Assembly (NCBI GenBank): GCA_030390025.1 | Contig: CM059443.1 | Location: 4,650,001-4,714,000, forward strand | Direction: 5' to 3' | Source of the DNA: Squalus acanthias | Lineage: Eukaryota | Length of the DNA stretch: 64,000 bases | Shown here: in pieces, positions 2,360 to 56,482 of the stretch | Layout: every line of letters begins with the position of its first letter | How positions within the stretch are numbered: position 1 is the first letter of the stretch | The notes under the pieces: model-generated | Seen by the model: only the letters and a program-made list of their open reading frames with translations | What the model was told of the DNA's origin: nothing | Database searches by the model: none | Position numbers and translations under genes: made by a program

Positions 2360-2365
2360 TTTATT
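2360..2365 (-). terminator. Putative polyadenylation signal of IgL cluster 1
   Basis: AATAAA on the minus strand about 410 nt after the C stop codon; conserved in cluster 2 at 44400-44405. Confidence 0.6.
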
Positions 2366-22730: not shown

Positions 22731-24215
22731 AGGACAATTTCAGATCATAACCTCTGCCCCTATCATTCTTTTCTCTCTCTCACATGGCAGCTGTTGATCA
22801 TCCTGTCATTGCCATTCACACGTCATCTTGTGCAGGAATAAGCCATATAACCTATTCAGAAAAATACACTATCTTATGAAAGAATTCTAGCCTTATTAAA
22901 ACATGACAAACTAGGTTTGGAAATTTAGAAACCTAACTATGAAGTAGCTATGAAAGAATTCTGGCTTTTGAGATAAGATAGTTGTTGACCCTGAATAAAT
23001 AACCTTATTGAAACAGAAGGTGAAGGGCTCCAACAGGCTGAACTTTTGGGAACGAAACAATGGTTCACCCTGGATAAGGTGTTCTAATTTACACGTCGTA
23101 AAGAAGCACATAAGATAAGGAACATCTGCCCTCATAAAGATGACATAAAGTAAGGAACACCTGCTGTCACACCGTTTTTATATGGTAAACTTAGAACACC
23201 TAGAGATGAGACATGAGTCTGGCTGAGGTGGCAGTAAGAGTTGCAGAGGTCGGCAGAAAAATGACTAGAGATAATTAGCTTGCATCAGCAGAAAACCTTA
23301 AAGGAAATACCACTGGAAAAGGATATAAATATTGAACTCTCAAATGGGATAACAGACTCGCTTTAATTGGGCAAAGCGATTCTCGGCTTCAGAGGCGGCT
23401 CTGTAGTCACCAACTCTTTGTACCTCGGGGATCAAAGGTCTTTGATATTGGTGGATATCCTGTAGAACACTTTAAGAACTGTAATACTGTAGTGAAGTTA
23501 AGATTTAAAAGTAAGATTCTCTGTTAATAATAAGATAGCAAGTTTTCTCTTTTTTACTGTAAATTGCATGTCGGTTCTTTAATAAATCTATATATTTTTA
23601 GAATTGTCTCACATAAGACTTCTGTATCAAAAACTCGCAAACTCAATCTCTGTACACTCTTTGGTGAGGAGTTGCAGAATTCTGGGGGAGTTTTCCGGAC
23701 CCTCATAATATCCGGAATTTTACAGTCTAGCTAAACTTATTAAAAGTGCTATCTGGAGGACGGGAACATTCTCAGGTTGTTCCTTTCCTTTAGGGAGAGA
23801 TAGTCCAGACCTTTAGACCCAATTAATCGTCTTTAGGATTCGGCTACCTCAAACTTTAGTTGAAAGTGAACGTCTGAGAAATACGCCTGATCCGGGGTAG
23901 CCCTAAAGGGGCTAGGACTAGTAAATATCCTTGCAATCTTTTGTTTCTTAACTTGTCCCATTACAATCTCCTTTTGCCTTGCACCATCATCCCTGTTGTA
24001 TCTTAATCTCTCCTGCCTTCCATCCTATCACTGACCTTCCCTTTTGTTCTTTCCTCCCCTCCCCCCTCTCCTTGCCCCTACACTTGCTTAAAAACCTGTT
24101 ACATCTCCAACTTTTTCCAGTTCTGACGAAGGGTCATCGACCTGAAACGTTAACTCTGTTTCTCTCTCTACAGATGCTGCCTGACCTGCTGAGTATTTCC
24201 AGCATTTTCTGTTTT
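22730..24215 (+). mobile_element. Penelope-like pLTR fragment with minimal hammerhead (about 24117-24156), split by the solo LTR
   Basis: Matches the 3' end of the Penelope array at 49121-56482 (acaatttcagatcataacctc..., ctgacgaagggtcatcgacctgaaacgttaac). Confidence 0.75.
22829..23935 (+). mobile_element. Solo LTR of a foamy-like endogenous retrovirus (second lineage)
   Basis: TG...CA, 1107 bp, 4-bp TSD ATCT (22825-22828 / 23936-23939). Colinear with the LTR at 30030-31148; highly similar in R/U5 and more diverged in U3. Confidence 0.9.
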
Positions 24216-29440: not shown

Positions 29441-30029
29441 AGAAGGCACCTCCCCTTTAAGTGCAGGGAGCAGGGGCGTACACCACTGTTTATCTCCCTC
29501 CAGGCTCAAATTCCTTCTTATTCACGCACTTTAATTTTAATCAACAAGCCTCTTATGTTGCACCTTATCAACAACATCTGCTCCATTTCCTTCATCAATA
29601 CACTCTCTCCAAGAATTCTATTAAATTTTTACAGACATGACTTGGCTCTTATGAAACCAAGTTGGCTCTCCTTAATAAGCCCATCTCTCTAAGCGAGTAT
29701 TAATTCATTCTGTATTGTGGCCCCTCAAAGCTCACCACAGCTGCTGTTAATCTGACTCTTTATAAAGGAATAAACTAGGTAACTAAGACCAGAGGTGTTA
29801 CATTGGCAGCTCTCGAGACATCGGACCCAACTTCTATATCCAAGGATCTTTGACAGATTGTGATCAAACACTGGTTTGGCCTCAACTGGAGTGTTGTGTC
29901 CAATTCTGGGCACCGCACTTTAGGAAGGATGTGAAGGCCTTACAGAGGGTGCAGAAAAGATTTACGAGAATGATTCCAGGGATGAGAGACTACAATTACG
30001 TGGATAGACTGGAGAAGCTGGGATTGTTA

Positions 30030-31148
30030 TGTGAAGGAATAAGCCATATTCAGAAAAATACACCATTCTATGAAAGAATTCTGGATTTATTAAAACATGA
30101 CATACTAGGTCTGGAAATCTGGAAGCCTCAACAATCTAAAATTGTTAACAGCATTCGGGCTATTGGGATAAGATAAGTTGTTGACACTGAATCAATAACC
30201 TATTGAAACAGGATGTTGGAGGCTCCTGAAGTCTGAAGCTTTGGAAAGAACACAATGGTACACCCTGGTTGAGGTGTTTTAATTTACACTTCATAAAAAG
30301 ACACAAACAGAAGACCTTGGTAAAAATGACATCAAATAGATGCACCTGCTGTTACACCGTATTTGTGTTAAGCTTAAGACACCTACACAGGAGACATAAT
30401 TCTGCATTGCTACCAGCTGTGGTGACTGTAAGGATAGCAGGGGTCAGCAGAAAAATGACTAGAGATAATTAGCTTACATCAGCAGAAAACTTCAAAGGAA
30501 AAACCACTGAAAAAGGATATAAATATTGAACTTTCAAATGGGATGATAGATTCGCTGTAAAGGGGCAAAGCGATTCTCAGGCTTCAGAGGCAGCTCTGTA
30601 AGTCTACAACTCTTTGTACCTCGGGGGTCAAGCTATTGTACTGTATTTGATTTTGGTGGATATCCTGGAATAAAGACTAAGTACTGTAAAAATGTAGCGA
30701 AGTTAAGATCTGATAATAAGAATTGTAAGCTTTCTCTTTTTGGAACTGTTAATGTTGCGATTGAAACACCTACTGTAATTACATGTCGGTTCTTTAATAA
30801 ATCTATGTATTTTTAGAATTGTCTCACATAGTACTTCTGTATCAAACTTGCGAACTCAATCTCTGTACACTCTTTGGTGAGGAGTTGCAGAATTCTGGGG
30901 GAGTTTTCCAGACCCTCATAATATCCGGAACGTTACAGTCCAGCTAAACATATTAAAAGTGCTATCTGGAGGATGGTAACATCTTCAGGTTGTTCCTTTC
31001 CTTTAGGGAGAGATGGTCCAGACCTTTAGACCCAATTAAGCGTCTTTAGGATTCGGCTACCTCAAACTTTAGTTGAAAGTGAACGTCTGGGGAATATGCC
31101 TGATCTGGGGTAGCCCTAAAGGGGCTAGGACTAGTAATTATCCCTTCA
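30030..31148 (+). repeat. 5' LTR of the foamy-like provirus
   Basis: TGTGAAGG...CTTCA; TATAAATA 30518-30525; GTAAGT 30598-30603; AATAAA near 30669 and 30796. Confidence 0.92.
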
Positions 31149-31150
31149 GT

Positions 31151-31168
31151 TGGCGCCCAACGTGTGTG
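31151..31168 (+). promoter_or_regulatory. Primer-binding site, tRNA-Lys(CUU)
   Basis: TGGCGCCCAACGTG, a 14-nt perfect match to the Lys1,2 PBS used by foamy viruses, 2 nt after the LTR terminal CA. Confidence 0.92.
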
Positions 31169-31591
31169 TTAACGAGTTGATACAGCACCTATACTTATAT
31201 TTATATCTATATCCATCTTGTAGGTTGTTAAGTATAGAAGGAGTGTTTTACTGACAGTGGTACTAAGACCCAGATTTAAGTCTCTAAAGACAACAAGTCC
31301 CTGATCAGGCCTTGTAGAACTTAAATCAGAACTCCCTCTGACGTAATAAAGACTCACTACGCACTTGAACATAAAGCAAGGCTTTAATCAACTTGTAACA
31401 AAACATGGAGGTCTAGTTAGCAGTCACTAGCTTCCTGTTTCCAGATTGTCTCTCCCCAAGGTGGGCCCATGCCTGAGTATTTATACGCCCTGGACGGCAC
31501 CCCAGCTGGCCGCCCAGTAGTACTTCCTGAGTTGTTACTTGCGATTTATGACATTCTTCCTCCCTAAAAGGTTTGGAAGTCCAGTCTTCCT

Positions 31592-34500
31592 TTAACGGAC
31601 TAGGCGGACCAGAAATAGCCGTAGACGTTTAGCTCTCTGCTTGTGAGTGGAAGGCACGTCTCCCCGGACCGTGTCCTGGTCCCTGGGTCGCTTGGCCCGT
31701 ACCGGTAAGTCAGTAGAGTCCGCGTCATCTTGATCATCCTGTGGAGGACTGGGAATATCATGACTCCGGGTGCGGGTCCCCACAGGTGCTGAGCTGGCCT
31801 CATCCCGGGTCGTGGCTGGAGATTGTCCGGCGTCCTGGTTTCGGGTGGCCATCCTACGGGGAGCGTCCAGCTCCCTGAGTTGATCCGGTAGCGTTGCCGG
31901 CAGATCCCCCGATGTCCCAGGCGGGGCGTCATTTTCATAGGGGTGCGGAGTGTTGATATCATTGTCGGGGGATCCTTCATCATTCGGCCCCGTGTGACCG
32001 GTTGGGCAGGGAGCCAGATCTCGGAGCGAGACGGTGGTCTCCCGGCCATCAGGTTACCGTACGTGCGCATACGTGGGGTTTACCTCCGTTAACTCCACCT
32101 CGTCAACGAGAGGGTCGTTTTTGGCAGACCGGACGAACCTCCGGAGTAGCACCGGGCCTGGAGCCACCAACCATGACGGTAGAGACGTCCCATGTGTAGA
32201 GCGACGCCGGAATTTGAAGAATCGCTCATGAGGCGTGACATTAGTAGATGTGGAGAGAAGAGACCTGATAGAGTGTAACGCGTCGGGGAGCACCGTTTCC
32301 CACTGCTGGTCCGGCAGGTTGCGTGACCTTAGTGCCAGACGGACAGCGTTCCAGATGATGGCATTGTATCGTTCAACCTGTCAGTTACCGATTGGGTGAT
32401 ATGGTGTCGTCTTACTTGAGCCGATTCCCCGTTGGGAGAGATAACTTTTAAGTTCACTCGACATAAAGGAGGGACCCCGATCAGTGTGGATAAAATTGGC
32501 CGTCCCGCAAAGGGAAAAGACCTGATCGAGGCATTTAATTACCGTAGAGGTAAGCATATTAGGGCAGGGGAAGGCGAAGGGAAAGCGTGAATACTCGTCC
32601 ACCATCGTAAGTAGGTAGGTGTTCCTTGTCGACGAAGGCAATGGCCCTTTAAAGTCTATGCTGAGCCTCTGCATAGGCTGCATTGCATGTATGAGTAAGC
32701 CATCTGATGGGCGAAAGAATTGTGGTTTCAATTCTGCACAAATCCTACAGGAGGAGCATGTTTTCTTTACGTCCTCGGTTGAAAATGGTAGATTTTTGGA
32801 GCGCACAAAGTGCAACATGCGGGTCACACCAGGATGGCATAAGTCCATATGCAAATCCGCCAGAGTCGACGTTGACATTGAGGAGCAAAATGCCCGTGTG
32901 AAGGTATCTGGGGCCACGTTCTGTTTGCCGGGTCGGTAACAGATAGTATATCCAAAGGCAGCCAGCTCCATCCTCCAGAGTTGAATTTTATTATTTTTGA
33001 TTTTCGTGCGCCTCCGGTTATCCAACATGAAGGCCACAGAGCACTGGTCAGTTATAAGCGTAAAATGACGCCGAGCAAGAAAATGACCCCATTGGCGTAC
33101 AGCCTCGATGATGGCCGTAGCCTCCTTCTCGACGGGGGGGTAATGGAGCTCGCTACCCTGCAAGGTTCTGGATAGGAATGCCACGGGTCGGCCACCTTGA
33201 TTCAAGGTAGCGGAGATCGCCACCTCCGATGCATCGCATTCGACCACAAAAGGAAGATTTTCGTCAATGGAGCGAAGCGTGGCTTTCTCCAGCTGTCGTT
33301 TGAGGAGGTTGAAGGCAGAAATAGCCATAGCTTCCAATGGAAAAGACTTCGCATGGAGCAGGGGCTGTATTTTATCGGAGAAGTGTGGTATCCATTTTGC
33401 GTAATAAGCAAACATGCCAAGTGCCCGACGAAGAGAGCCGAGGTTCGTCGGGGGAGGGAGCTCCTGAAGTGGACGAAGTCGCTCTGGGTCCGGTTTAATA
33501 ACACCGTTGCCCACCCAGTAGCCAAGAATGTTCACCGATGGCACCGACTTCACCGATTTGGATTCGTTTAACGTTAAGTGGCGACGGCGGAGTACGTCAA
33601 AAAATCTCTGAAGATTGGCGTCATGCTCCTTTTGATCATGGCCGGCAATAGTGATATTGTCTAAATACGGAAAGGTATCCGTCAAGTTCTCTTGCCGGAC
33701 TAGGCCATCCATGGCCCGTTGGAAGACGGCCACCCCATTGGTGACCCCGAATGGAAGGCGGCGAAACTGGAAAAGCCGACCATTGGCCTCAAAGGCCGTA
33801 TACTTCTTGTCGGAGTCTTGCAGTGGCACCTGATGGTACGCGCTTTTTAAATCGAAGGTCGAGAATACCTTGTATTTGGCAAGGTTGTTGACCATGTCAT
33901 CTATGCATGGCAGCGGGTAGGCATCCAGATCGGTATATTGATTAATAGTCTGCGAATAATCGATACACAGACGTTTTTTATGTTGTTTTAAGGGATTCCT
34001 CACGATGACGACCTGAGCCCGCCAGGGAGATGAACATGGCTCGATAATACCGTCGACTAAAAGGCGAGAGATTTCCGCCTCAATAAACGCTCGATCGTCT
34101 TGGCTAAAGCGCCGCGATTTGGTGGCTATGGGTTTACAGCGGGGGGGAAGATTGGCAAACAGGGAGGGTTCACCGAGTAAGGCCGCCGAGAGTGCACAAA
34201 ACGGCACCTTAGAAATGGTAAGCTCCGGCCTTGACCCTCCAAACTCAAAAGTGATCTTCTTGTGCTGCTTCTGGAAGTCCTGTCCCAGAAGCACATCGCT
34301 ACATAAGTTTTCGAGTACTCCGAGCCGGGTGGAGAGATACGTGCGGCCGTTGAGGATGAGGTTGACAAGACAGAAGCCAGAAGAATTGGTGGTCAGAGTC
34401 GTCAGAGCCATTGCAATCTCCCTGTCCGAGGGATAAGTGTGCAGTTTTAACCTGTTGACAGCCCGCTTACTAATGAAGCTGTCAGAGCTGCAGGAGTCGA

Positions 34501-34717
34501 TTAGCGCGCTTAGAGTGTGCCCATTTACTGAAACCTCAATATAATCATACACATGAGGAGACACGTAGTTGATAAGCATTCGTAACTTATTAGGGACATC
34601 CGCCCCACATTCTTCAAGAAAGTTGCTAAAGGTACGAAACCAATGCTTCCATACCTTCGCTGCCGCAGGTGCATTCGGGTCCAGGTCGAGACGAGCGGGT
34701 CTAAGGAGTTTTTCCAT
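31592..34717 (-). pseudogene. Gypsy gag(truncated)-PR-RT-RH-IN polyprotein, copy A; in-frame stops at 32381 and 32054
   Basis: PR IDSCSSDSFI; RT CIDYS / DLKSAYHQ / PFG / YLDN; RH CDASE, EKEA, TDQ; IN H-H-C-C, IDFKGPLP, HTDRG, then GN*QVERYN and HVR*PDGRETTVS in the same frame. Confidence 0.92.
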
Positions 34718-35070
34718 GATGGATCAGTTTCTTGCCCTAGTTCCCTTCTGTGGTTCGAGTTGCAGCTGGTTGTTCCAAATCACCCAAAGCGTGGAGACGA
34801 TACCAAGTTGATTAAATTGATGTAATAAAGACTCACTACGCACTTGAACATAAAGCAAGGCTTTAATCAACTTGTAACAAAACATGGAGGTCTAGTTAGC
34901 AGTCACTAGCTTCCTGTTTCCAGATTGTCTCTCCCCAAGGTGGGCCCATGCCTGAGTATTTATACTCCCTGGACGGCGCCCCAGCTGGCCGCCCAGTAGT
35001 ACTTCCTGAGTTGTTACTTGCGATTTATGACATTCTTCCTCCCTAAAAGGTTTGGAAGTCCAGTCTTCCT

Positions 35071-38000
35071 TTAACGGACTAGGCGGACCAGAAATAGCCG
35101 TAGACGTTTAGCTCTCTGCTTGTGACTGGAAGGCACGTCTCCCCGGACCGTGTCCTGGTCCCTGGGTCGCTTGGCCCGTACCGGTAAGTCAGTAGAGTCC
35201 GCGTCATCTTGATCATCCTGTGGAGGACTGGGAATATCATGACTCCGGGTGCGGGTCCCCACAGGTGCTGAGCTGGCCTCATCCCGGGTCGTGGCTGGAG
35301 ATTGTCCGGCGTCCTGGTTTCGGGTGGCCATCCTACGGGGAGCGTCCAGCTCCCTGAGTTGATCCGGTAGCGTTGCCGGCAGATCCCCCGATGTCCCAGG
35401 CGGGGCGTTATTTTCATAGGGGTGCGGAGTGTTGATATCATTGTCGGGGGATCCTTCATCATTCGGGCCCGTGTGACCGGTTGGGCAGGGAGCCAGATCT
35501 CGGAGCGAGACGGTGGTCTCCCGGCCATCAGGTTACCGTACGTGCGCATACGTGGGGTTTACCTCCGTTAACTCCACCTCGTCAACGAGAGGGTCGTTTT
35601 TGGCAGACCGGACGAACCTCCGGAGTAGCACCGGGCCTGGAGCCACCAACCATGACGGTAGAGACGTCCCATGTGTAGAGCGACGCCGGAATTTGAAGAA
35701 TCGCTCATGAGGCGTGACATTAGTAGATGTGGAGAGAAGAGACCTGATAGAGTGTAACGCGTCGGGGAGCACCGTTTCCCACTGCTGGTCCGGCAGGTTG
35801 CGTGACCTTAATGCCAGACGGACAGCGTTCCAGATGATGGCATTGTATCGTTCAACCTGTCAGTTACCGATTGGGTGATATGGTGTCGTCTTACTTGAGG
35901 CGATTCCCCGTTGGGAGAGATAACTTTTAAGTTCACTCGACATAAAGGAGGGACCCCGATCAGTGTGGATAAAATTGGCCGTCCCGCAAAGGGAAAAGAC
36001 CTGATCGAGGCATTTAATTACCGTAGAGGTAAGCATATTAGGGCAGGGGAAGGCGAAGGGAAAGCGTGAATACTCGTCCACCATCGTAAGTAGGTAGGTG
36101 TTCCTTGTCGACGAAGGCAATGGCCCTTTAAAGTCTATGCTGAGCCTCTGCATAGGCTGCATTGCATGTATGAGTAAGCCATCTGATGGGCGAAAGAATT
36201 GTGGTTTCAATTCTGCACAAATCCTACAGGAGGAGCATGTTTTCTTTACGTCCTCGGTTGAAAATGGTAGATTTTTGGAGCGCACAAAGTGCAACATGCG
36301 GGTCACACCAGGATGGCATAAGTCCATATGCAAATCCGCCAGAGTCGACGTTGACATTGAGGAGCAAAATGCCCGTGTGAAGGTATCTGGGGCCACGTTC
36401 TGTTTGCCGGGTCGGTAACAGATAGTATATCCAAAGGCAGCCAGCTCCATCCTCCAGAGTTGAATTTTATTATTTTTGATTTTCGTGCGCCTCCGGTTAT
36501 CCAACATGAAGGCCACAGAGCACTGGTCAGTTATAAGCGTAAAATGACGCCGAGCAAGAAAATGACCCCATTGGCGTACAGCCTCGATGATGGCCGTAGC
36601 CTCCTTCTCGACGGGGGGGTAATGGAGCTCGCTACCCTGCAAGGTTCTGGATAGGAATGCCACGGGTCGGCCACCTTGATTCAAGGTAGCGGAGATCGCC
36701 ACCTCCGATGCATCGCATTCGACCACAAAAGGAAGATTTTCGTCAATGGAGCGAAGCGTGGCTTTCTCCAGCTGTCGTTTGAGGAGGTTGAAGGCAGAAA
36801 TAGCCGTAGCTTCCAATGGAAAAGACTTCGCATGGAGCAGGGGCTGTATTTTATCGGAGAAGTGTGGTATCCATTTTGCGTAATAAGCAAACATGCCAAG
36901 TGCCCGACGAAGAGAGCCGAGGTTCGTCGGGGGAGGGAGCTCCTGAAGTGGACGAAGTCGCTCTGGGTCCGGTTTAATAACACCGTTGCCCACCCAGTAG
37001 CCAAGAATGTTCACCGATGGCACCGACTTCACCGATTTGGATTCGTTTAATGTTAAGTGGCGACGGCGGAGTACGTCAAAAAATCTCTGAAGATTGGCGT
37101 CATGCTCCTTTTGATCATGGCCGGCAATAGTGATATTGTCTAAATACGGAAAGGTATCCGTCAAGTTCTCTTGCCGGACTAGGCCATCCATGGCCCGTTG
37201 GAAGACGGCCACCCCATTGGTGACCCCGAATGGAAGGCGGCGAAACTGGAAAAGCCGACCATTGGCCTCAAAGGCCGTATACTTCTTGTCGGAGTCTTGC
37301 AGTGGCACCTGATGGTACGCGCTTTTTAAATCGAAGGTCGAGAATACCTTGTATTTGGCAAGGTTGTTGACCATGTCATCTATGCATGGCAGCGGGTAGG
37401 CATCCAGATTGGTATATTGATTAATAGTCTGCGAATAATCGATACACAGACGTTTTTTATGTTGTTTTAAGGGATTCCTCACGATGACGACCTGAGCCCG
37501 CCAGGGAGATGAACATGGCTCGATAATACCGTCGACTAAAAGGCGAGAGATTTCCGCCTCAATAAACGCTCGATCGTCTTGGCTAAAGCGCCGCGATTTG
37601 GTGGCTATGGGTTTACAGCGGGGGGGAAGATTGGCAAACAGGGAGGGTTCACCGAGTAAGGCCGCCGAGAGTGCACAAAACGGCACCTTAGAAATGGTAA
37701 GCTCCGGCCTTGACCCTCCAAACTCAAAAGTGATCTTCTTGTGCTGCTTCTGGAAGTCCTGTCCCAGAAGCACATCGCTACATAAGTTTTCGAGTACTCC
37801 GAGCCGGGTGGAGAGATACGTGCGGCCGTTGAGGATGAGGTTGACAAGACAGAAGCCAGAAGAATTGGTGGTCAGAGTCGTCAGAGCCATTGCAATCTCC
37901 CTGTCCGAGGGATAAGTGTGCAGTTTTAACCTATTGACAGCCCGCTTACTAATGAAGCTGTCAGAGCTGCAGGAGTCGATTAGCGCGCTTAGAGTGTGCC

Positions 38001-38196
38001 CATTTACTGAAACCTCAATATAATCATACACATGAGGAGACACGTAGTTGATAAGCATTCGTAACTTATTAGGGACATCCGCCCCACATTCTTCAAGAAA
38101 GTTGCTAAAGGTACGAAACCAATGCTTCCATACCTTCGCTGCCGCAGGTGCATTCGGGTCCAGGTCGAGACGAGCGGGTCTAAGGAGTTTTTCCAT
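35071..38196 (-). pseudogene. Gypsy polyprotein, copy B; same two stops (35860, 35533)
   Basis: Near-identical to copy A; 778-aa ORFs differ at 3 residues. Confidence 0.92.
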
Positions 38197-38589
38197 GATG
38201 GATCAGTTTCTTGCCCTAGTTCCCTTCTGTGGTTCGAGTTGCAGCTGGTTGTTCCAAATCACCCAAAGCGTGGAGACGATACCAAGTTGATTAAATTGAT
38301 GTAATAAAGACTCACTACGCACTTGAACATAAAGCAAGGCTTTAATCAACTTGTAACAAAACATGGAGGTCTAGTTAGCAGTCACTAGCTTCCTGTTTCC
38401 AGATTGTCTCTCCCCAAGGTGGGCCCATGCCTGAGTATTTATACTCCCTGGACGGCGCCCCAGCTGGCCGCCCAGTTGTACTTCCTGAGTTGTTACTTGC
38501 GATTTATGACACCCTCAATATACCATTGAGGTCTAGAAATTCCTTATAAAGTTCAAATTAAACCCTAACCGAGGTTAGGTCCTGACGAA

Positions 38590-40218
38590 ATGGAAAGCCC
38601 TGTAGGAATTGGCCAAGTCTTTTTATTAGGGAATTCAAATGATTGCTTTATTAGGGGAAATAATCCTATCCCTGTACCTCCACAAGACAAAGTAATAATT
38701 TTTGATCGATCGTCAATCATGATTAAAAAAGGGACATCCCAACAATCCTCAGCTGGGATGGGGATAGTAGTAGGGACTTTTCGAGATTCCTATTCTTTTA
38801 ATCCAGAAGAATTACTGTCCATACCCCTTGGCCATAAGACAGCGCAATATGCTGAAGCCGCAGCATTACGGTATGCTTTAGAAAAGGCAGACCCTATTAA
38901 ACCCACACTAATCTGTACAGATAGTGACTACTGTAAAAGAGGATATAACCAAGATCTAGTTTTCTGGGAACAAACAAATTTTATCAATCATAAGGGTAAA
39001 CCCATAAAACATAAGTCATTGTGGGAAGACATTCTCCGTTCGAGAATGGAGAAACAGAATTGTCAGGTGATTCATGTAAACGGGCATACCACTGGGACAG
39101 TACACTCAAAAGGAAACAGTCTTGGACACGAACAAGCAAAACGCTCAGTCTTCATGACACCCCCTCGAGAGGGGCCTGCCAATATTAGTGTAATCACTAG
39201 GGCAGAACGGGTAGCTAATCAGGATGAGGAACTGATTCAGCTATTAGACCCGACAAAAGAGAATCCACCAGGATATCCACCAAAGTACTTTTACTCGGAA
39301 ACCCCTACGGGTATTGTGCTAGTTAAGTTGCCCAAGGGAAACCGAGAAGTAGTCCCGAGACACAAACGAGAACAGCTTGTAAAAGAAGCTCACGAGAGAA
39401 TAGGTCAAGCACATTGTGGTGCCAGAACAATATTCTGCAAATTGACACCCTTATATTGGTGGCCAGGCATGCTTAAGGCCTATAAAACATATGTGGCAAA
39501 TTGTGAGCCATGCTATTTAACCAATAAGTCATCACTAATTAAGCCACCACCATTGGCTCCTGTGAAAGCTGATGAGCCAATGGGAAAATTCTTTATTGAC
39601 TTTATTGGACCACTTCCCCCGTCTTTGGGATACAGACATGTTCTCGTTTGTGTAGATGGATGCACTTCCTTCTGCTGGCTGGTCCACACAAAAATTGTTT
39701 CAGAAAACGCACTCGCCAATGCTATTACTGACATAATTACTGTAGCTGGTGCGCCCAAAATCTTACACTCCGTTAAAGGCGGAGCCTTTGTCTCCAAGGT
39801 CTTCAAAGACTACTGCGAACAAAGGGGGATTGGGTTAGAGCACAGCACGCCACATCATCTGCAATCAGCGGGGCTGTTGGAACGTAAAAACCAGGAAGTT
39901 AAAAAGCTATTGGTCAAACTGTTGAGAATCAGGGGAAATAAGTGGACCACCGTCATTCCGGAGGTGCAGCTATCACTTAATAATGTGCCCACATCTGCAT
40001 CAGGGACAGTGTCCCCTAAAACTCCATATTATCTGATGTATGGGGTTGAGATGAATACACCGCTTACCCATAGTTCTTTTATTGCCTCTACACTTTCTGA
40101 GTCCGTGACCCGACAGCGACAGTTAGATTTAAAAAAAGAAGTAACAGAGGAGATTCATCAAATTGATCAGAGGATAAGGGAGGCAAATAGGCAGAAAAAA
40201 TTGACAAACAAAGCATAG
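38590..40218 (+). pseudogene. pol: Foamy-like Pol remnant: RNase H plus integrase (542-aa ORF; C-terminal domain continues out of frame to about 40400)
   Basis: SAGMGIV...SIPLGHKTAQYAE...TDS...KPIKH; integrase N-terminal extension GYPPKYFY; HHCC; KFFIDFIGPLPPSLGY; ERKN; then LRPKWKKP...INERTV...RTVSINNLK. These parallel prototype foamy virus SAGMGIV/SIPLGNHTAQMAE/YPKQY/FFIDYIGPLPPSQGY/LRPRWHKP/RTVSIDNLK. Confidence 0.88.
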
Positions 40219-41049
40219 CCCCAGCAGGAGAATGAGTACAGGAAAAGAAGTTTGAGCAAAAACCTGGTTTAAGACCGAAGTGGAAAAAACCTGTTCAGAT
40301 ACATTCTGTTATTAACGAAAGAACAGTTAAAATACATATTAATCAGCCGAATGGCAAGCATATTCTTAGAACTGTCTCCATAAACAATCTCAAAAGATGT
40401 CCTGCGGGATACCGAAATGGAGGAACAATACAAGGTGCAGTCGTACACTGTCGTTCAAGACCCAGCCTGGAGCACGACATAGGAAATGGATGCAATCGAA
40501 TTACTGACGGCGGTCAGTCAGACGGTGTCACCGACTCCTCCACACGATGCTTGGCAACACCTCAGGAATTGGATTCACGAAAAGCCACAACCGAAACAAG
40601 GAAAGATCAATGAGTTACTTCAACGAAGGAGGAAAACACCGCGGATGAAGAAGGAATCAACTGAGCGCCTGGCAAGGGCTTTACGACAACAAGAGTCTGT
40701 CCACACGCTGGATCGAAGAAACAGCGTGTCAAGCTTTAGCTAGTTCCAAATGACGTCTCCTTGACTCGTATGAATAACTCACCTCTACGGAACATACATC
40801 TGCCGATTGGACATTCTAACTACAGGTTGTTTCGTTAATTGCATGACAATGTACCTATCATCCTTTTAAATTGTGTTCAATTTAAAATAAGGCAAAACAT
40901 TGTCCTGGGATGACTTTAAAGGAATTTTCATGTCGCACATGATTAGGCTCTTGTGAATCTCATGAAATTAATGTGCTATTGTAACCTTATTAGTAACATT
41001 GGCCAAACTCTGTCTAGATGCTCGTGTTCATTTTTGGTCAAGATGGGTG

Positions 41050-43065
41050 TGTGAAGGAATAAGCCATATTCAGAAAAATACACCATTCTATGAAAGAATT
41101 CTGGCCTTATTAAAACATGACATACTAGGTCTGGAAATCTGGAAGCCTCAACAATCTAAAATTGTTAACAGCTTCAGGCTAATGGGATAAGATAAGTTGT
41201 TGACACTGAATCAATAACCTTATTGAAACAGGAGGTTGGAGGCTCCTGAAGTCTGAAGCTTTGGAAAGAACACAATGGTACATCCTGGTTGAGGTGTTTT
41301 AATTTGCACTTCGTAAAAAGAAACAAACAGAAGACCTTGGTAAAAATGACATCAAATAGATGCATCTGCTGTTAAACCGTTTTTGTGTTAAGCTTAAGAC
41401 ACCTACACAGGAGACATAATTCTGCATTGCTACCAGCTGAGGTGACTGTAAGAATAGCAGGGGTCAGCAGAAAAATGACTAGAGATAATTAGCTTACATC
41501 AGCAGAAAACTTCAAAGGAAATACCACTGAAAAAGGATATAAATATTGAACTTTCAAATGGGATGATAGATTCGCTGTAAAGGGCCAAAACGATTCTCAG
41601 GCTTCAGAGGTGGCTCTGTAAGTCTACAACTCTTTGAACCTCGGGGCTCAAGGTAATGTATTGTATTTGATTTTGGTGGATATCCTGGAATAAAGACTAA
41701 GGGGTAAAAATTCAGTTGGTTGCGCCTCCCGTTAGCGCCTTAAGAGGGCGCTAATGGGGCGCAAAGCCGCTAACGCCCGGGCGCAGCGATGTTTGCGCCG
41801 CTCGGGAACTTAACTTGACATTGTGCGGCGGCGCTAAAACTTACCGCTGCGACCACCTGCGCGCGCAGATTGTGACGTCATTCCATGGTGCAACGCCCTT
41901 GTGGCGCCCCGGAGCGGAAATTGAGTATCGCCCCCTGCCTTACCGCCTGGCGCATCCAACGACCAGAAGACTGGAACGCTATCAATCGCTGTGGGGCTGG
42001 GGGGGGGCGCTATTTAAAGGGGGCCTCTTCCTGTCTTTTATTGTTGGTGGCATTTTTGAACTACGCATTCTGAGAGCGAGAGGGAGAGACTTCTGGAGAG
42101 ATTCAACGTTGTGTGAAGGAGTTTTGGGTACTGAGCAGCACTTTGCAGGTTCATTTTGATTTGCCATTCCTTGTATCGATTTAGCAGAGACTGTGGGAGC
42201 TGCACTCTGAGCTCTTTGCCTGGTACTCTCCATTGTTCTTTCCAGCACATTTGATGTGCAAGTCTCTCCAGGCCGAGATTCAAGGCTGCAATGAACAGGA
42301 TGTGGATGGAAAGCAAGATTAACCATCCCCTTTAAGAACTGGCCCGTGCCATTGTGTGTGTGTTCCATTGCTGACTGACATTACATGAGCTTCGCCAGCG
42401 CTCTGAGGTAGCGCCTCACTCCTTGGCCTTTGCGCCTTAAGACAGGTGTGCAGCGCCTGATTTAGCGCTCCACTCACCTCCCGGGGCGGTAAAAGTGAAG
42501 TTTCCAGTCAGTGCCAATAATTAGCGCCAGGCGCTAATATTTGCGTCCAGACGATATTTGCGCCCCAAATGGGGCGCGACCTAATTTCTACCCCTAAGTA
42601 CTGTAAAAATGTAGCGAAGTTAAGATCTGATAATAAGAATTGTAAGCTTTCTCTTATTGGAACTGTTAATGTTGTGATTGAAACACCTACTGTAATTATA
42701 TGTTGGTTCTTTAATAAATCTATATATTTTTAGAATTGTCTCAAATAGTACTTCTGTATCAAACTTGCGAACTCAATCTCTGTACACTCTTTGGTGAGGA
42801 GTTGCAGAACTCTGGGGGAGTTTTCCGGACCCTCATAATATCCGGAATGTTACAGTCCAGCTAAACTTATTAAAAGAGCTATCTGGAGGATGGTAACATC
42901 TTCAGGTTGTTCCTTTCCTTTAGGGAGAGATGGTCCAGACCTTTAGACCCAATTAAACATCTTTAGGATTCGGCTACCTCAAGCTTTAGTTGAAAGTGAA
43001 CGCCTGGGGAATACGCCTGATCTGGGATAGCCCTAAAGGGGCTGAGATTAGTAATTATCTCTTCA
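41050..43065 (+). repeat. 3' LTR of the foamy-like provirus (interrupted by a MITE)
   Basis: 2016 bp minus the 897-bp insertion plus TSD equals 1119 bp; preceded by purine-rich AAGATGGG; about 47 differences from the 5' LTR by eye (about 4%). Confidence 0.92.
41701..42594. mobile_element. Non-autonomous PIF/Harbinger element (MITE)
   Basis: TIRs GGGGTA(A/G)AAATT, TAA target duplication (41698-41700 / 42595-42597), absent from the 5' LTR, CpG-rich. Confidence 0.92.
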
Positions 43066-44817
43066 GTTATTCTTAGAGCTGAGAAGGTTGAGAAGATATT
43101 TGATAGAGGTGGTCATAATCATGAGGGGTCTGGACAGAGTAGATTGCGAGAAACTGTTCCCATTGGCAGAAGGGTTGAGAACCAGAGGATACAGATTTAA
43201 GGTGATTGGCAAAAGAACGAAAGGCGACATAAGAAAAAACTTTTTAACGTCATAAGTGGTTAGGACCTGGAATGCACTGCCTTAAAAGGTGGTGGAAGCA
43301 GACTAAATCACGGCTTTCAACATTGAGTTGGATAAGTAGCTGAAGGAAAAATAAATTGCAGGGCTACGGGGAAAGGGCGGGGGAGTGGGACTAGCTGAAG
43401 TGCTCTTGCAGAGCCAGTAGGGGCTCGACGGGCTGACTAGCCTCCTTCCGTGCTGTAACCATTCTATGATTTTATGAAAATTTTACAGATCTGTTGATAT
43501 GAACCCTCAAGTCTCTCTCCTCCTTTTAAAGTTTTGGTGTAAAGTGCTCTCATTCTTCATCCCAAAATGTAACACCTCATTTCTCTATTAAATTTCATCT
43601 ATCTATCTGCTCGATCGACTAACCTGTCTATATCCACCTGAAGTTTTGTACCTGTCTCTTCACAGTTAACCACTCTCACTATATCTGTGTTGACTAAAAG
43701 TTTTGATACTATAACCCCATACTCAAGTCCAGATCATTTACATAATGAGGAAAGCAACGGTCCGAACAGTGGCCCCTTGTAGAGCGTGGGGGTCAGGGGG
43801 AAGGGTGGTGCAGGGGCGGGGGAGTATACCACGGTGTCTCCCCCCAGGCTCTTAATTCCCTTTTCTACTCCCCTTAATTTTATCCTTTTCAACCTTATCA
43901 ACCCCTTTTTGAAAGTCCATATACACAACATCTACTGCATTTCCTTCACCAATAGACTCTCTCCTCAAAGAATTCCGTTAAATTTCTCAGACATAACTTG
44001 GCTTTTATGGAACCATGCTGGATCTCTTTATAAAGCCCAAGTCTCTAGGTGAATATTAATTTATCCTGTATTGTGGCCTCTAGAAACTTACCACTGGTGC
44101 TATTAATCGGACTGATCGATAATTACCTAGTTTATTCCTTTATAAACAGATGTTACAGTCATAACCCTCGAGACATCTGACCCAACTTCTCTATCCAAGG
44201 ATGTTTGAATAAGTGTGATCAAACCCTCTGCTGTTTCCTCTGACTTCCCTCAACATTCTTGGATGCATGGAAACAGGACAAGAATTGGAGCAAAGTGTTG
44301 GCTCTCCTCACATCTAGAGCACTTGATGGTGTCAGGGATGGGGAGGAGCACACAAGGTGACAAAACACACACTCGGAAATATTTCCTGCACAGATTCTCT
44401 TTATTGGAAGTTACGCTCAGTGACAGTAGTCGTCAGTCTGATGCTCTTGACAGATCATAAACTATCTTCATTAAACCATTTTCATTAAATTCAGCACTGG
44501 TCCTGGGAAAACCACCCATTTGAACTGAAATTCCTGATTAGAGACCAGTAACTGGTCACTTTAACCCTGGTGTAGCCTCTTGGAATAGGAGAAACTGAGC
44601 AAAACCTGCCTCAGGTACAAAGACTTCAAATGATACAGCAGAACCACACAAAGCAAAACAGAAGCACAAAATGCAGCAAATACCAAGGGTAGAGGGTGGA
44701 TAATGGGGATGGGGTAGGGGAAGATGATGGGGTTGGTGAGGGATACAGGGTGGATAATGGGGAAAGTGACACTTTCCCACTATTCAGGCAGCATACACGA
44801 GTGAAGCTTCGATCTAT

Positions 44818-49016: not shown

Positions 49017-49120
49017 GAGAGCGATTCACACTGACCAACCAGGGCAAGGATCTGAAACCCTCTCATTCAGCGTCAGAGACTGTCAGATTGAGGCAGTGAC
49101 ACCTCAGCACTGTCAGCAAC

Positions 49121-52100
49121 CAGAGTTACCCTTGTCCTCACCTTTCACCTCACCAGCCTCCACATTCAACGGATCATCCTCCGCCATTTCCGCCACCTCC
49201 AGCGCGATCCCACTACCAAACGCATCTTCCCCTCACCTCCCCTTTCAGCATTCCGTAGGGACCGCTCCCTCCGCGACACCCTAGTCCACTCCTCTATCAC
49301 CCCCAACACCCCTTCCCCTTCGCCCGGCACCTTCCCGTGCAAGCACAGGAGATGCAACACATGCCCTTATACCTCCCCCCTTCTCACTGTCTAGGGCCCC
49401 AAACACCCCTTCCAGGTGAAACAGCGATTTACTTGTACTTCTTGCAATTTAGTATACTGTATTCACTGCTCACGATGTGGTCTCCTCTACATTGGGGAGA
49501 CCAAACACAGATTGGGTGACCGCTTTGCGGAACACCTCCGTTCAGTCCGTAAGGGGGACCCCGAGCTTCCAGTCGCCTGTCACTTTAATTCTCCGCTCCA
49601 CTCCCACTCAGACTTCACCGTCCCCGGCCTCTTGCATTGTTCCACTGAAGCTCAGCGTAAGCTCGAGGAACAGCACCTCATCTTTCAATTAGGCACTTTA
49701 CAGTCCTCTGGACTCAACATAGAGTTCAACAATTTCAGATCATAACCTCAGCCCCTATCATATATATATATTTTATCCACACTCTTTGTCTGTCTTATTT
49801 TTCTCTCTCCCACATGGCAGCTGTCTTCATTCTGCCAGCGCAATTTACACTTCATCTAGAGCCATCCTTTGTTTCTTAACCTGTCCCATTACCATCTCCT
49901 TTTGCCTTGAATATCTCTTAATATCTCTTAACCTCTCCTGCCTCCCATCCTATCACAGACCTTCCCTTTTGTTCTTTCATCCCCTCCCCCCTTTCTCAGC
50001 CTCTACACTTGCTTAAAAATCTGTTCCATTTCCTGCTTTTTTCCAGTTCTGACGAAAGGTCATTGACCTGAAACGTTAACTCTGTTTCTCTCTTCACAGA
50101 TGTTGCCTGACCTGCTGAGTATCTCCAGCATTTTCTGTTTTTATTTCAGATTTCCAGCATCTGCAGTATTTTCTTTTTGTATTAGTGTTTAATTCACTGC
50201 CACCTCTCTTCCAGGAATGCCCACCTTGAAGAAGTTCTGCCCTTCTCTTCGACAGGAGTTCCGTTTGTCTCTTTTACCTTGTTCATCTTCATTGTTTTCT
50301 GTCTCCCTTCTTGTGTTTGATCAGGTATCTACCAAAACTCGCTTTCACAGCCACGTATCTTTCCTCAGCAACTGTCTCCGGCTCCAACTTACTCCACGTG
50401 GATTCCAACTGAAATTGCACCCTTCGTGTTTTGGATCCACCCAGGACTACAGATATCTCCAAGATATTCAGCGTTCCTCGAACCACTGCTCTCGCCGTAT
50501 CCTGAGATCCATGCTGAATGCCATGCGCCGCCACATGAACACTCTCGACCTCTCTCTTCAGCAGCACCGACTCACTCTATTTCAAAGCTGTCCTGGTCCG
50601 CAGTTCCATTTCATCCTTCGCCTCATCCGGCGCTTTAACAAAAAACTTGTTTTCTTCCTTTCAAGTGTCAAGGATCGAAGGCTTTAACAACCCTTGAACA
50701 CCAACGACCCTCCGGAACCTTCTTCCCCTTCACTTTCCTCTGACCCCATCCCTTCTCCCAATCTCACCCCCTGCCGTGTTTTCACTATCCCCTCTGACCT
50801 TCCCCTCTCTGACCCCGAACGATCAGTCCTTAGCAAAGGCCTGAGCTTCATCCCCTTACGCCCCCACCTCAATGAATTTCGAGCTCGGCACGATGCTGAG
50901 CTGTTTTTCCGCCGCCTTCGTCTCCGTGCCCACTTCTTTGACCAGGAGTCTTCCCCCCACACGGCTGACCCTTTCTCCCGCTTTCAGAATTCTCGTTCCA
51001 CCTGGACCCCTCCCTCTGGCCTCTTACCCTCTCTAGATCTTTTCATTGCAAACTGCCGGCGTGACATCGGCCGTCTCTATTTCTCTGCTCCCCTCACTCA
51101 CTCCAACCTACCTCCCTCTGAACTTGCAGCACTCCATTCTCTCAGATCCAACCCCGACATTGTCATTAAACCTGCTGACAAGGGTGGTGCTGTTGTTGTT
51201 TGGCGAACCGACCTCTACCTAGCGGAAGCTGAACGCCAACTCTCCGACACCTCCTCCTACTTCCGCCTGGACCATGACCCCCACCACCGAACATAAAGCC
51301 ACCGTTTCCAAGACTGTCACTGACCTCATCTCCTCTGGCGATCTTCCCCCCACGGCCGCCAACCTCATAGTTCCCCAACCCCACACAGCCCTCTTCTACC
51401 TCCTTCCCAAGATCCACAAACAGGACTGCCCTGGTAGACCCATCGTTTCAGCTTGTTCTTGCCCCACGGAACTTATCTCTTCCTGTCTCGACTCTATTTT
51501 TTCTCCCCTTGTCCAGTCTCTTCCCACCTACATCCGCGGCTCTTCCGACGCCCTCCGCCACTTTAACAGTTCAGTTCCTGGTCCTTTTCACTATGGACGT
51601 ACAATCCCTCTACACCTCCATCCCCCACCAGGATGGCCTGAGGGCGCTCCGCTTCTTCCTTGAACAGAGGCCCAACCAGTCCCCATCCACCACCACTCTC
51701 CTCCGCCTGGCTGAACAACTTCTCCTTTGACTCCGCTCACTTCCTCCATGGGTCCTAGCTATGCCTGCCTTTTCGTGGGATATGTGGAACACTCTTTGTT
51801 CCAGTCCTACTCAGGTCCCCTCCCTCACCTCTTTTTCCGGTACATTGATGACTGTGTCGGTGCCGTTCCCTGCTCTTGCCCTGAACTAGATAATTTCATT
51901 CACTTTGCTTCCAATTTCCACCCTTCCCTCACCTACACATGGTCCATCTCCGACTTTTCCCTTCCCTTCCTCGACTTCTCCGTCTCCATCTCTGGGGATA
52001 GGTTATTGACAAACATTCACTACAAGCCCACTGACTCCCACAGCTACCTGGACTACACTTCCTCCCACTCCGCCTCCTGTAAGGACTCTATTCCATTCTC

Positions 52101-55100
52101 CCAGTTTCTCCGTCTCCGCCGCATCTGCTCTGACGATGCCACCTTCCATACCAGTGCTTCTGACATGTCTTCCTTTTTCCTGAACCAAGGATTCCCCTCT
52201 ACAGTGGTTGACACGGCCCTTGACCGTGTCCATTCTATCTCCCGCACTTCTGCTCTCACTCCTGCCCCTCCCTCCTGGAACCACGACAGAGTTCCCCTTG
52301 TCCTCACCTTTCACCTCACCAGCCTCCACATTCAACGGATCATCCTCCGCCATTTCCACCACCACCAGCGTGATCCCACCACCAAACGCATCTTTCCCTC
52401 ACCTCCCCTTTCAGCATTCCGTAGGGACCGCTCCCTCCACGACACCCTAGTCCACTCCTCTATCACCCCCAAAACCCCTTCCCCTTCGCCCGGCACCTTC
52501 CCGTGCAAGCGCAGGAGATGCAACACATGCCCTTATACCTCCCTCTTCTCACTGTCCAGGGCCCCAAACACCCCTTCCAGGTGAAACAGCGATTTACTTG
52601 TACTTCTTGCAATTTAGTATACTGTATTCGCTGCTCACGATGTGGTCTCCTCTACATTGGGGAGACCAAACGCAGATTGGGTGACCGCTCAGTCCGTAAG
52701 GGGGACCCCGAGCTTCCGGTCGCCTGTCACTTTAATTCACTGCTCCACTCACACTCAGACCTCACCGTCCTCGGCCTCTTGCATTGTTCCACGGAAGCTC
52801 AGCATAAGCTAGAGGAACAGCACCTCATCTTTCGATTAGGCACTTTACAGCCTTCCGGACTCAACATCGAGTTCAACAATTTCAGATCATAACCTCAGCC
52901 CCTATCATATATATATATTTTATCCACACTCTTTGTCTGTCTTTTTTTTTTCTTCTCCCTCACATGGCAGCTGTCTTTCATTCTGCCAGCGCAATTCACA
53001 CTTCATCTCGAGCCATCCTTTGTTTCTTAACCGGTCCCATTACCATCTCCTTTTGCCTTGAATATCTCTTAATATCTCTTAACCTCTTCCGCCTCCCATC
53101 CTATCACAGACCTTCCCTTTTGTTCTTTCATCTTCTCTCCCCTTTCCCAGCCTCTACACTTGCTTAAAAATCTGTTCCATTTCCTGCTTTTTTCCAGTTC
53201 TGACGAAAGGTCATCGACCTGAAACGTTAACTCTGTTTCTCTCTTCACAGATGCTGCCTGACCTGCTGAGTATCTCCAGCATTTTCTGTTTTTGTTTCAG
53301 ATTTCCAGCATCTGCAGTATTTTCTTTTTGTATTAGTGTTTAATTCACTGCCACCTCTCTTCCAGGAATGCCCACCTTGAAGAAGTTCTGCTCTTCTCTC
53401 CGACGGGAGTTCCGTTTGTCTCTTTTACCTTGTTCATCTTCATTGCTTTCTGTCTCCCTTCTTGTGTTTGATCAGGTATCTACCAAAACTCGCTTTCACA
53501 GCCACGTATCTTTCCTCAGCAACTGTCTCCGGCTCTGACTTACTCCACGTGGATTCCAACTGAAATTGCACCCTTCGTGTTTTGGATCCACCCAGGACTA
53601 CAGATATCTCCAAGATATTCAGTGTTCCTCGAACCACTGCTCTCGCCGTATCTTGAGATCCATGCTCAACGCCATGCGCTGCCACATGAACACTCTCAAC
53701 CTCTCTCTTCAGCAGCACCGACTCACTCTATCTCAAAGCTGTCCTGGTCCGCAGTTCCATTTCATCCTTCGCCTCATCCGGCGCTTTAACAAAAAACTTG
53801 TTTTCTTCCTTTCAAGTGTCAAGGATCGAATGCTTCAACAACCCTTGAACACCAACGACCCTCCGGAACCTTCTTCCCCTTCACTTTCCTCTGACCCCAT
53901 CCCTTCTCCCAATCTCACCCCCTGCCATGTTTTCACTATCCCCACTGACCTTCCCCTCTCTGACCCCGAACGATCTGTCTTTAGCAAAGGCCTGAGCTTC
54001 ATCCCCTTACGCCCCCACCTCAATGAATTTCGAGCTCGGCACGATGCTGAGCTGTTTTTCCGCCGCCTTCGTCTCCGTGCCCACTTCTTTGGCCAGGAGT
54101 CTTGCCCCCGCACGGCTGACCCTTTCTCCCACTTTCAGAATACTCGTTCTACTTGGACCCCTCCCTCTAGCCTCTTACCCTCTCTAGATCTTTTCATTGC
54201 AAACTGCCGGCGTGACATCGGCTGTCTCCATTTCTCTGCTCCCCTCACTCACTCCAACCTACCTCCCTCTGAACTTGCAGCACTCCATTCTCTCAGATCC
54301 AACCCCGACATTGTCATTAAACCTGCTGACAAGGGTGGTGCTGTTGTTGTTTGGCGAACCAACCTCTACCTAGCAGAAGCTGAACGCCAACTCTCCGACA
54401 CCTCCTCCTACTTCCGCCTGGACCATGACCCCCACCACCGAACATAAAGCCACCGTTTCCAAGACTGTCACTGACCTCATCTCCTCTGGCGATCTTCCCC
54501 CCACGGCCGCCAATCTCATAGTTCCCCAACCCCACACAGCCCTCTTCTACCTCCTTCCCAAGATCCACAAACAGGACTGCCCTGGTAGACCCATCGTTTC
54601 AACCTGTTCTTGCCCCACGGAACTTATCTCTTCCTGTCTCGACTCTATTTTTTCTCCCCTTGTCCAGTCTCTTCCCACCTATATCCGCGGCTCTTCCGAC
54701 GCCCTCCGCCACTTTAACAGTTTCCAGTTTCCTGGCCCCAACCGCCTCCTTTTCACTATGAACGTACAATCCCTCTACACCTCCATCCCCCACCAGGATG
54801 GCCTGAGGGAGCGCCGCTTCTTCCTTGAACAGAGGCCCAACCAGTCCCCATCCACCACCACCCTCCTCCGCCTGGCTGAACTTGTTCTCACATTGAACAA
54901 CTTCTCCTTTGACTCCGCTCACTTCCTCCATGGGTCCTAGCTATGTCTGCCTTTTCGTGGGATATGTGGAACACTCTTTGTTCCAGTCCTACTCAGGTCC
55001 CCTCCCTCACCTCTTTTTCCGGTACATTGATGACTGTATCGGTGCCGTTCCCTGCTCTCGCCCTGAACTAGGTAATTTCATTCACATTGCTTCCAAATTC

Positions 55101-56482
55101 CACCCTTCCCTCACCTTCACATGGTCCATCTCCGACTCTTCCCTTCCCTTCCTCGACTTCTCCGTCTCCATCTCTGGGGATAGGTTATTGACAAACATTC
55201 ACTACAAGCCCACTGACTCCCACAGCTACCTGGACTACACTTCCTCCCACCCCGCCTCCTGTAAGGACTCTATTCCATTCTCCCAGTTTCTCCGTCTCCG
55301 CCGCATCTGCTCTGACGATGCCACCTTCCATACCAGTGCTTCTGACATGTCTTCCTTTTTCCTCAACCGAGGATTCCCCACTACAGTGGTTGACACGGCC
55401 CTTGACCGTGTCCATTCTATCTCCCGCACTTCTGCTCTCACCCCTGCCCCTCCCTCCCGGAACCACGACAGAGTTCCCCTTGTCCTCACCTTTCACCCCA
55501 CCAGCCTCCACATTCAACGGATCATCCTCCGCCATTTCCGCCACCACCAGCGTGATCCCACCAACAAACGCATCTTCCCCTCACCTCCCCTTTCAGCATT
55601 CCGTAGGGACCGCTCCCTCCGCGACACCCTAGTCCACTCCTCTATCACCCCCAACACCCCTTCCCCTTCGCCCGGCACCTTCCCGTGCAAGCGCAGGAGA
55701 TGCAACACATGCCCTTATACCTCCCCTCTTCTCACTGTCCAGGGCCCCAAACACCCCTTCCAGGTGAAACAGCGATTTACTTGTACTTCTTGCAATTTAG
55801 TATACTGTATTCGCTGCTCACGATATGGTCTCCTCTACATTGGGGAGACCAAACGCAGATTGGGTGACCGCTCAGTCCGTAAGGGGGACCCCGAGCTTCC
55901 GGTCGCCTGTCACTTTAATTCACCGCTCCACTCACACTCAGACCTCACCGTCCTCGGCCTCTTGCATTGTTCCACGGAAGCTCAGCGTAAGCTCGAGGAA
56001 CAGCACCTCATCTTTCGATTAGGCACTTTACAGTCCTCTGGACTCAACATCGAGTTCAACAATTTCAGATCATAACCTCAACCCCTATCACATATATATA
56101 TATTTTTTATCCACACTCTTTGTCTGTGTCTTTTTTTCTCTTCTCTCCCACATGGCAGCCGTCTTTCATTCTGCCAGCGCAATTTACACTTCATCTAGAG
56201 CCATCCTTTGTTTCTTAACCTGTCCCATTACCATCTCCTTTTGCCTTGAATATCTCTTAATGTCTCTTAACCTCTTCCGCCTCCCATCCTATCACAGACC
56301 TTCCCTTTTGTTCTTTCATCTTCTCCCCCCTTTCCCAGCCTCTACACTTGCTTAAAAATCTGTTCCATTTCCTGCTTTTTTCCTGTTCTGACGAAAGGTC
56401 ATCGACCTGAAACGTTAACTCTGTTTCTCTCTTCACAGGTGTTGCCTGACCTGCTGAGTTTCTCCAGCATTTTCTGTTTTTA
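49121..56482 (+). mobile_element. Penelope-like element array (partial copy plus two near-full copies), probably Neptune-like, decayed
   Basis: KPADKGGAVVV, YLLPKIHK..PGRPIVS, RYIDD, Cys-rich linker CKRRRCNTC, GIY-YIG LVYCIRCSRCGLLYIGET...GLN. EN ends repeat at 49745, 52892 and 56075 (about 3.15-kb period). Confidence 0.92.
50043..50082 (+). ncRNA. Minimal type-I hammerhead ribozyme motif in pLTR (also about 53194-53233, 56382-56421 and 24117-24156)
   Basis: AGTT-CTGACGA-a-AGGTC(att)GACCT-GAAA-CG-TT|AACT: core, stem II, palindromic AACGTT stem III and a 4-bp stem I. Confidence 0.7.

Follow-up and report, generated by a model that had tools for sequence, protein, structure and literature searches.

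Foamy-like endogenous retroviruses (FLERVs) of catshark and chimaera have already been published (PMC10699275, PMC5512871). As far as these accounts go, CmiFLERV, NviFLERV and AciFLERV (PMC5512871) and ERV-Spuma.0-Sca (PMC10699275) have a lysine tRNA primer-binding site (PBS), 4-bp target-site duplications (TSDs), long terminal repeats (LTRs) of more than 1 kb and a foamy-type Pol. The element examined here, which spans 13036 bases (30030..43065) of a 64,000-nt stretch of Squalus acanthias DNA (the window), has the same features, and the first 14 letters of the AciFLERV Lys PBS, as given in the supplement of PMC5512871, are the same as those of the window PBS. The account of Callorhinchus available to us (PMC5512871) has only pol detected there, whereas gag, the A9 protease and env were all detectable in sibling copies of our element, and newt gag and pol overlap (PMC5512871) whereas here they lie in one frame across a TGA. 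Most copies of the family are env-less or further deleted, and the FLERV papers, in the parts at our disposal, describe no amplified deleted forms. We found no account in the literature of amplified deleted FLERVs or of read-through in them, although subscription papers and supplements may hold one.

Two further systems are relevant. Prototype foamy virus (PFV) needs two cis-acting sequences (CAS): CAS-I, made up of the leader with the first 200 nt of gag, and CAS-II, which covers about 1.8 kb of 3' pol (PMC5035957, in the portion available). The cis regions of PFV minimal vectors (CAS-I, CAS-II and CAS-III), as outlined in the same portion and in that of PMC3705302, are those which the deleted form described below has kept (LTRs, PBS, leader, the first 114 nt of gag, 3' pol and polypurine tract, PPT), a match of position only; no perfect central PPT was found in the family's long copies, and Pol there has no Met ahead of the protease motif. 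Mouse intracisternal A-particle (IAP) I-delta-1 and ETn/MusD elements, as summarized in the available part of PMC6466679, are alike in env loss, intracellular amplification and non-autonomous deleted subtypes which multiply in trans, and IAP I-delta-1 also has an in-frame Gag-Pol fusion. IAP and ETn/MusD are class II betaretrovirus-like, whereas in the family here the fusion involves only 38 Gag codons and one lineage persisted with a broken frame. On the analyses below we regard it as reasonably probable that the window copy is a non-coding-competent, deleted member of a large foamy-like endogenous retrovirus (ERV) family, that it was likely copied by the Gag-Pol of longer env-less relatives, and that its RNase H-integrase stretch was likely kept as a CAS-II-like RNA signal in cis.

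The best PDB match of the element protein was PFV integrase, N-terminal extension included (E 3.9e-67; Ty3, E 4.6e-14). Domain matches comprised RNase H, Integrase_H2C2, rve and SH3_11, and the retained part aligned to PFV Pol from about residue 590 on. An integrase tree of 22 rows, which omits 13 of 34 database rows with too little integrase, grouped the window protein with five mammalian foamy viruses and one further protein (support 97/97). A reverse transcriptase (RT) tree of 36 rows placed a sibling copy inside a 21-row foamy-like clade (99/95) with Gypsy rows outside; within it the sibling fell with mammalian foamy viruses and proteins of newt (Pleurodeles) and shark (Callorhinchus, Scyliorhinus) (90/76 and 95/76, neither starred), apart from the ray-finned-fish proteins. 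Sibling copies, not the window copy, gave matches to Gag_FV_central (E 5e-13), Spuma_A9PTase (E 1.6e-07) and Foamy_virus_ENV (E 9.5e-22), while a Cys-His box was not seen in Gag (zinc-knuckle family absent at E up to 1 in the gag-pol frame of one copy). A protein search among near-length proteins returned no foamy relatives and three Gypsy-like matches. Gypsy-type RT and integrase were seen only in the inner insertion and not in the outer element. We class the outer element as a foamy-like ERV and not as a mammalian-type spumavirus. The earlier note on this DNA had proposed a precisely delimited, datable foamy-like provirus with PFV-like RNase H and integrase, the N-terminal extension included, and these points were borne out; the phylogeny that it called for places the protein with foamy viruses and not with Gypsy, among outgroups labelled by host or Pfam which include no named lokiretrovirus or epsilonretrovirus. 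A 1687-aa foamy-like database protein, near the element's family in both trees, carries Gag and Pol in a single open frame.

The window copy is real and datable, but it is dead and gutted. About 2.7 kb of foamy internal sequence remains, without protease, RT, most of gag or most of env. At 38703..38705 approximately 3.3 kb of gag-protease-RT is gone, and 38 Gag codons run in frame into RNase H at its first catalytic Asp. The open reading frame (ORF) at 38569-40218 encodes RNase H, HHCC and integrase core domains; the integrase frame is disrupted near 40216 and the second catalytic Asp is replaced by Val. A genome DNA search gave 849 candidates, of which 40 were scored, and the same deleted layout was present in 11/11 other loci first fetched. 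Pattern counts across the genome, which are lower bounds (reversed controls, 0), gave at least 72 places with the window's gag-RNase H junction, at least 159 with undeleted gag at the same spot, at least 191 LTR-PBS joins, and at least 110 and at least 179 for two integrase core alleles. These counts put the family at about 230-290 loci in the assembly. The 17 copies of classes C and C2 that were compared had distinct flanks, exact 4-bp TSDs in 13 cases and LTR pairs 0.022-0.055 apart. The same deletion is found at many independent insertions with their own TSDs, alongside longer forms, as in a non-autonomous subtype. Because one junction recurs in at least 72 places, the window copy belongs to an amplified non-autonomous form. 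The earlier note's provirus stands as foamy-like, delimited and datable. It is not a rare near-complete copy but an internally deleted, twice-invaded member of a family that numbers hundreds of copies. That the copies arose by segmental duplication was rejected, as flanks and TSDs differ among them, and so was an origin of the deletion by splicing, the junction ends being microhomology and not GT-AG.

Env-bearing copies, which are few and broken (11 Pfam matches at 6 places), have leader, gag and pol in common with env-less copies and hold about 3 kb extra, with Foamy_virus_ENV matches, at the position equivalent to 40417..40755. No env was present in any of the 44 copies running from PBS to 3' end in two samples drawn by gag start or PBS only (see below). 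In one case two proviruses stand in tandem with one LTR in common. Sequencing runs of four organisms contain the family (query, window 38515-41045); one contig spans the window's junction, and others show the second junction type, the deletion in RNase H and the frameshift site of the V lineage (see below). As junctions occur in runs of different organisms, the deleted forms are probably common to several species. The LTR pair of the window copy differs by K2P (Kimura two-parameter) 0.0415 (4.1%), with 45 differences (28 of them transitions, 17 transversions) among 1118 aligned sites, in agreement with the earlier by-eye estimate of about 4%. This gives an age of about 41 million years at 0.5e-9 per site per year, the rate assumed for catshark in the available part of PMC10699275, or about 94 million years by hand arithmetic at 2.2e-10 (rate as it appears in the accessible part of PMC4422223).

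In all, 140 loci were mapped to a natural env-less copy whose 6049-nt internal region served as the reference. Nine deletions of at least 40 nt were shared, each by 2-51 copies (Table 1); what they remove is gag, protease or RT sequence or a portion of RNase H, and all lie inside reference 321-4015. None of the nine fell in reference 4016-6035, from integrase to PPT, among the 140 loci. When nine deletions were placed at random, the integrase-coding part (4200-5400) was spared with p 0.0065. Large deletions, private ones included, repeatedly have their ends (3593-3846, 4015) a short way upstream of the stretch that was kept. There were 20 private deletions, four small ones of which lie within the spared stretch; seven more single copies, outside this count, fuse internal sequence to the distal part of the 3' LTR. 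Since approximately 40 of the 140 loci had been picked by likeness to the spared stretch, control samples of 40 loci by gag start alone and 40 by PBS alone (the latter excluding loci already sampled) were drawn. In each there were 22 end-to-end copies, and 200-nt bins over 4001-6000 were kept in 20-22 of these, as against 3-10 for the RT bins (2201-3600). Six loci carry insertions at two integrase-region sites (reference 4780-4785, n=4; 4730, n=2); these were rejected as replicated shared insertions, since different elements of MITE type (miniature inverted-repeat transposable elements) had inserted independently at the same sites.

The tree shows one lineage, V, as a ladder along which deletions follow one another. 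Upstream of the integrase core, 16/21 V copies share a stop and a +1 frameshift, which occur in 0/80 copies of classes B, C and C2. Integrase changes shared by V1 and V2 (11 copies, CpG sites excluded) comprised 5 synonymous and 30 non-synonymous or stop changes. V copies have distinct flanks, and among 12 the TSD was exact in five, matched at three of four bases in three and was uncalled in the other four. Judging from these sequences, the V lineage continued to be copied and kept its integrase stretch without a working integrase, since both occurred despite the shared stop and frameshift.

A second pattern was seen at the codon of the second catalytic Asp and the codon next to it, where two bases are both changed in 43/70 RT-deleted copies, the window copy among those changed, but in only 2/27 pol-complete copies (copies with other alleles and gag-only deletion groups excluded; Fisher 8e-7, which is overstated since the copies are related). 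In class C no other site was linked to this change. In V copies the alleles proper to the lineage that flank the change (41 nt upstream and 17 nt downstream) are older than it, and single-step intermediates are present, so that the change either arose more than once or moved as a tract of less than 60 nt. A templated donor within the element was looked for on both strands of one long copy, without any 7-10-mer match. The two bases lengthen a predicted hairpin by two G-U pairs, and our guess would be selection on a cis element.

Env-bearing, env-less gag-pol and several deleted forms have the leader, gag start and integrase region in common. We think it likely that the integrase stretch was spared as an RNA signal for copying. 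On this reading intracellular amplification would have followed the loss of env, the deletions would stem from template switching by RT at microhomologies, and helper copies would have acted in trans, while selection for packaging or reverse transcription would have kept the leader and gag start (CAS-I-like) and 3' pol (CAS-II-like). The window copy would have landed in its CR1-type host element tens of millions of years ago, to judge from LTR divergence; a Gypsy element and a MITE came later. The stretch could instead have been kept for its protein, the translated in-frame Gag-RNase H-integrase fusion aiding its own RNA in cis or shielding it from nonsense-mediated decay, for which the mouse IAP I-delta-1 fusion is a precedent (PMC6466679, part available). 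Two independent junctions set the gag ATG in frame with RNase H (34/38 class C and 8/9 class C2 copies; chance, 1 in 9), no stop or frameshift is fixed in C or C2, and their shared changes lean synonymous (omega 0.53; 8 synonymous, 11 non-synonymous or stop), although that lean is not significant (Fisher p 0.19). The V lineage, which replicated and kept the stretch with its shared stop and frameshift, and the altered catalytic Asp of the RT-deleted copies argue against a protein role, which we consider rather unlikely as a general explanation. For class C alone, a cis role of the fusion protein like that of IAP I-delta-1 may apply.

The series might also reflect chance and mutation bias, a few founder deletions having arisen at microhomologies in gag and RT with the integrase stretch unselected. 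There are only nine shared events, several of them nested, and the kept stretch tolerates the four small private deletions. The p value with all nine, the repeated ends just upstream of the stretch, the match of the kept parts to CAS-I and CAS-II positions and the change of the same two bases on two backgrounds make this quite improbable in our estimation. Least credible, and hardly to be entertained, is that the locus holds one foamy provirus of 13 kb, largely complete, or a mistaken Gypsy or orthoretroviral element. An LTR pair and TSD do bound 13 kb with a protease-RT ORF within, but those ORFs are antisense and missing from other copies, and they sit in a distinct Gypsy insertion that has three LTRs and a TSD of its own; for the outer element, Gypsy is excluded by the foamy-specific domains and by both trees. 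The layout of the other copies and the trees refute both versions.

Several observations weigh against a retained RNA signal. The permutation p climbs to 0.066 once the two largest deletions are omitted, its interval was chosen post hoc, the deletions nest within a small number of lineages, and the counted copies are related and not independent. Along the kept stretch the changes shared in the V lineage are evenly distributed, at 4-14 per 100 nt, a conserved core was looked for within it and none was seen, and seven long copies yielded no perfect match to the 3' PPT in a central position. That both gag-RNase H junctions are in frame fits a protein role. In mammalian foamy viruses part of the role of CAS-II is the encapsidation of Pol, for which a virus making Gag-Pol by read-through would have no need.

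Gag and pol share one frame in the family, with a TGA at the junction in 40/46 copies, and the stretch 3' of this TGA is structured (z -2.5 to -3.3 against mononucleotide shuffles, three copies). In a sequence test, pol had no Met from the gag stop up to the protease motif, and a spliced-pol strategy is accordingly unlikely in the family. The mammalian arrangement, in which a spliced mRNA with a start codon of its own yields Pol separately from Gag, is not indicated by the sequence; Pol is likely made by read-through of the gag TGA, unlike in mammalian foamy viruses. To our knowledge CAS-II, known from the viruses of primates and cats, has been regarded as peculiar to foamy viruses. Tentatively, a CAS-II-like 3' pol signal could have been present already in a deep-branching read-through Gag-Pol virus and hence be older than spliced pol, with the Asp hairpin as part of the signal, tuned in parallel by defective genomes freed from coding constraint; we put this forward as possible and no more. 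Should the same stretch be spared in defective genomes of a shark-type relative, a packaging design in two parts would be very old. The in-frame gag-TGA-pol bears on the origin of the spliced Pol of mammalian foamy viruses. The deletion ends bracket the likely cis element at about 1.4-2 kb, as in minimal foamy vectors. Taken alone the locus is unremarkable, being an ERV copy, now dead, that lies in an immunoglobulin (Ig) light-chain region; its value lies in the family's natural deletion series.

Features of the locus and the shared deletions are collected in Table 1. The earlier note had listed paired 1119-bp LTRs, a 4-bp TSD GTTA and a Lys PBS. The TSD is present at both sides, the PBS TGGCGCCCAAC has no second match on either strand of the window, and the stated LTR length holds for the 5' LTR, the 3' LTR spanning 41050-43065 owing to an 894-bp MITE. 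Leader and internal part adjoin in 11/11 other loci. A purine-rich 10-mer at 39165..39174 is a weak candidate for a central PPT, picked out post hoc and alone not significant.

Table 1. Features of the element and its surroundings (window coordinates) and shared deletions of the family (reference coordinates).
Feature	Coordinates	Strand	Remarks
Left TSD GTTA	30026..30029	+	inside CR1-type LINE (long interspersed nuclear element), which resumes colinearly beyond the element
5' LTR	30030..31148	+	1119 bp, TG...CA
Leader, 5' part	31149..31338	+	in other copies runs straight into 38517 onward
tRNA-Lys-type PBS	31151..31164	+	TGGCGCCCAAC
Tandem Gypsy element	31339..38511	-	foreign to the foamy element; three 215-bp LTRs, period 3479; protease, RT, RNase H and integrase; 5-bp TSD CCCTC
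gag ATG and first 38 Gag codons	38590..38703	+	opens the gag ORF of undeleted copies with the same sequence
gag/RNase H deletion junction	38703..38705	+	3-base microhomology within a looser 17-base match
RNase H and integrase to stop	38704..40218	+	N-terminal extension, HHCC, core
Purine-rich 10-mer	39165..39174	+	9/10 identical to family 3' PPT; at RNase H-integrase boundary
Predicted hairpin	39768..39784	+	over second catalytic Asp codon; two-base change at 39773, 39775
Integrase C-terminal SH3 domain	40236..40610	+	SH3_11 E 6e-07; frame differs from core
env start remnant and env deletion junction	40417..40755	+	about 3 kb of env gone
3' PPT	41040..41049	+	decayed in window copy
3' LTR	41050..43065	+	split by MITE
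MITE	41701..42594	.	894 bp, terminal inverted repeats, 3-bp TAA duplication; in 3' LTR; many copies elsewhere
Right TSD GTTA	43066..43069	+	
Shared deletion	321-3678		15 copies
Shared deletion	378-3698		51 copies; the window's own
Shared deletion	709-1694		12 copies
Shared deletion	1915-1987		8 copies
Shared deletion	1915-3666		7 copies
Shared deletion	2327-3593		20 copies
Shared deletion	2623-2986		4 copies
Shared deletion	2932-3500		2 copies
Shared deletion	3904-4015		23 copies

Later insertions make up 8070 of the 13036 bases of the element span (62%), the remainder being about 5 kb. The RT of the Gypsy insertion clusters with Gypsy rows in the RT tree. Its gag is very short, and its units differ at only 9/3264 internal bases and its LTRs at 1-4/215, so that the duplication is recent or an assembly artefact. 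In the host LINE the left flank encodes amino acids 58-111 of the CR1-type ORF and the right flank amino acids 124-206. A solo LTR of the same foamy-like family was found at 22829-23930, with 80.6% identity to the 5' LTR.

The probable Ig locus of the earlier note was confirmed. A V segment at 48741-48418 (minus), a J segment near 48031 (minus) and a second V ending near 7011 (minus) were found; the V segments are light-chain-like with a heptamer/12-bp/nonamer recombination signal sequence, and the J close by has FGxGT. We take this V/J cluster layout to be of the cartilaginous-fish type. The setting is real yet incidental, family copies being on many contigs. Elsewhere in the window, three tandem copies of an element with RT-like and GIY-YIG-like ORFs, presumably of Penelope type, occupy approximately 49100-56500 (period about 3150-3190), and a 32-bp minisatellite lies at 4527-5102.

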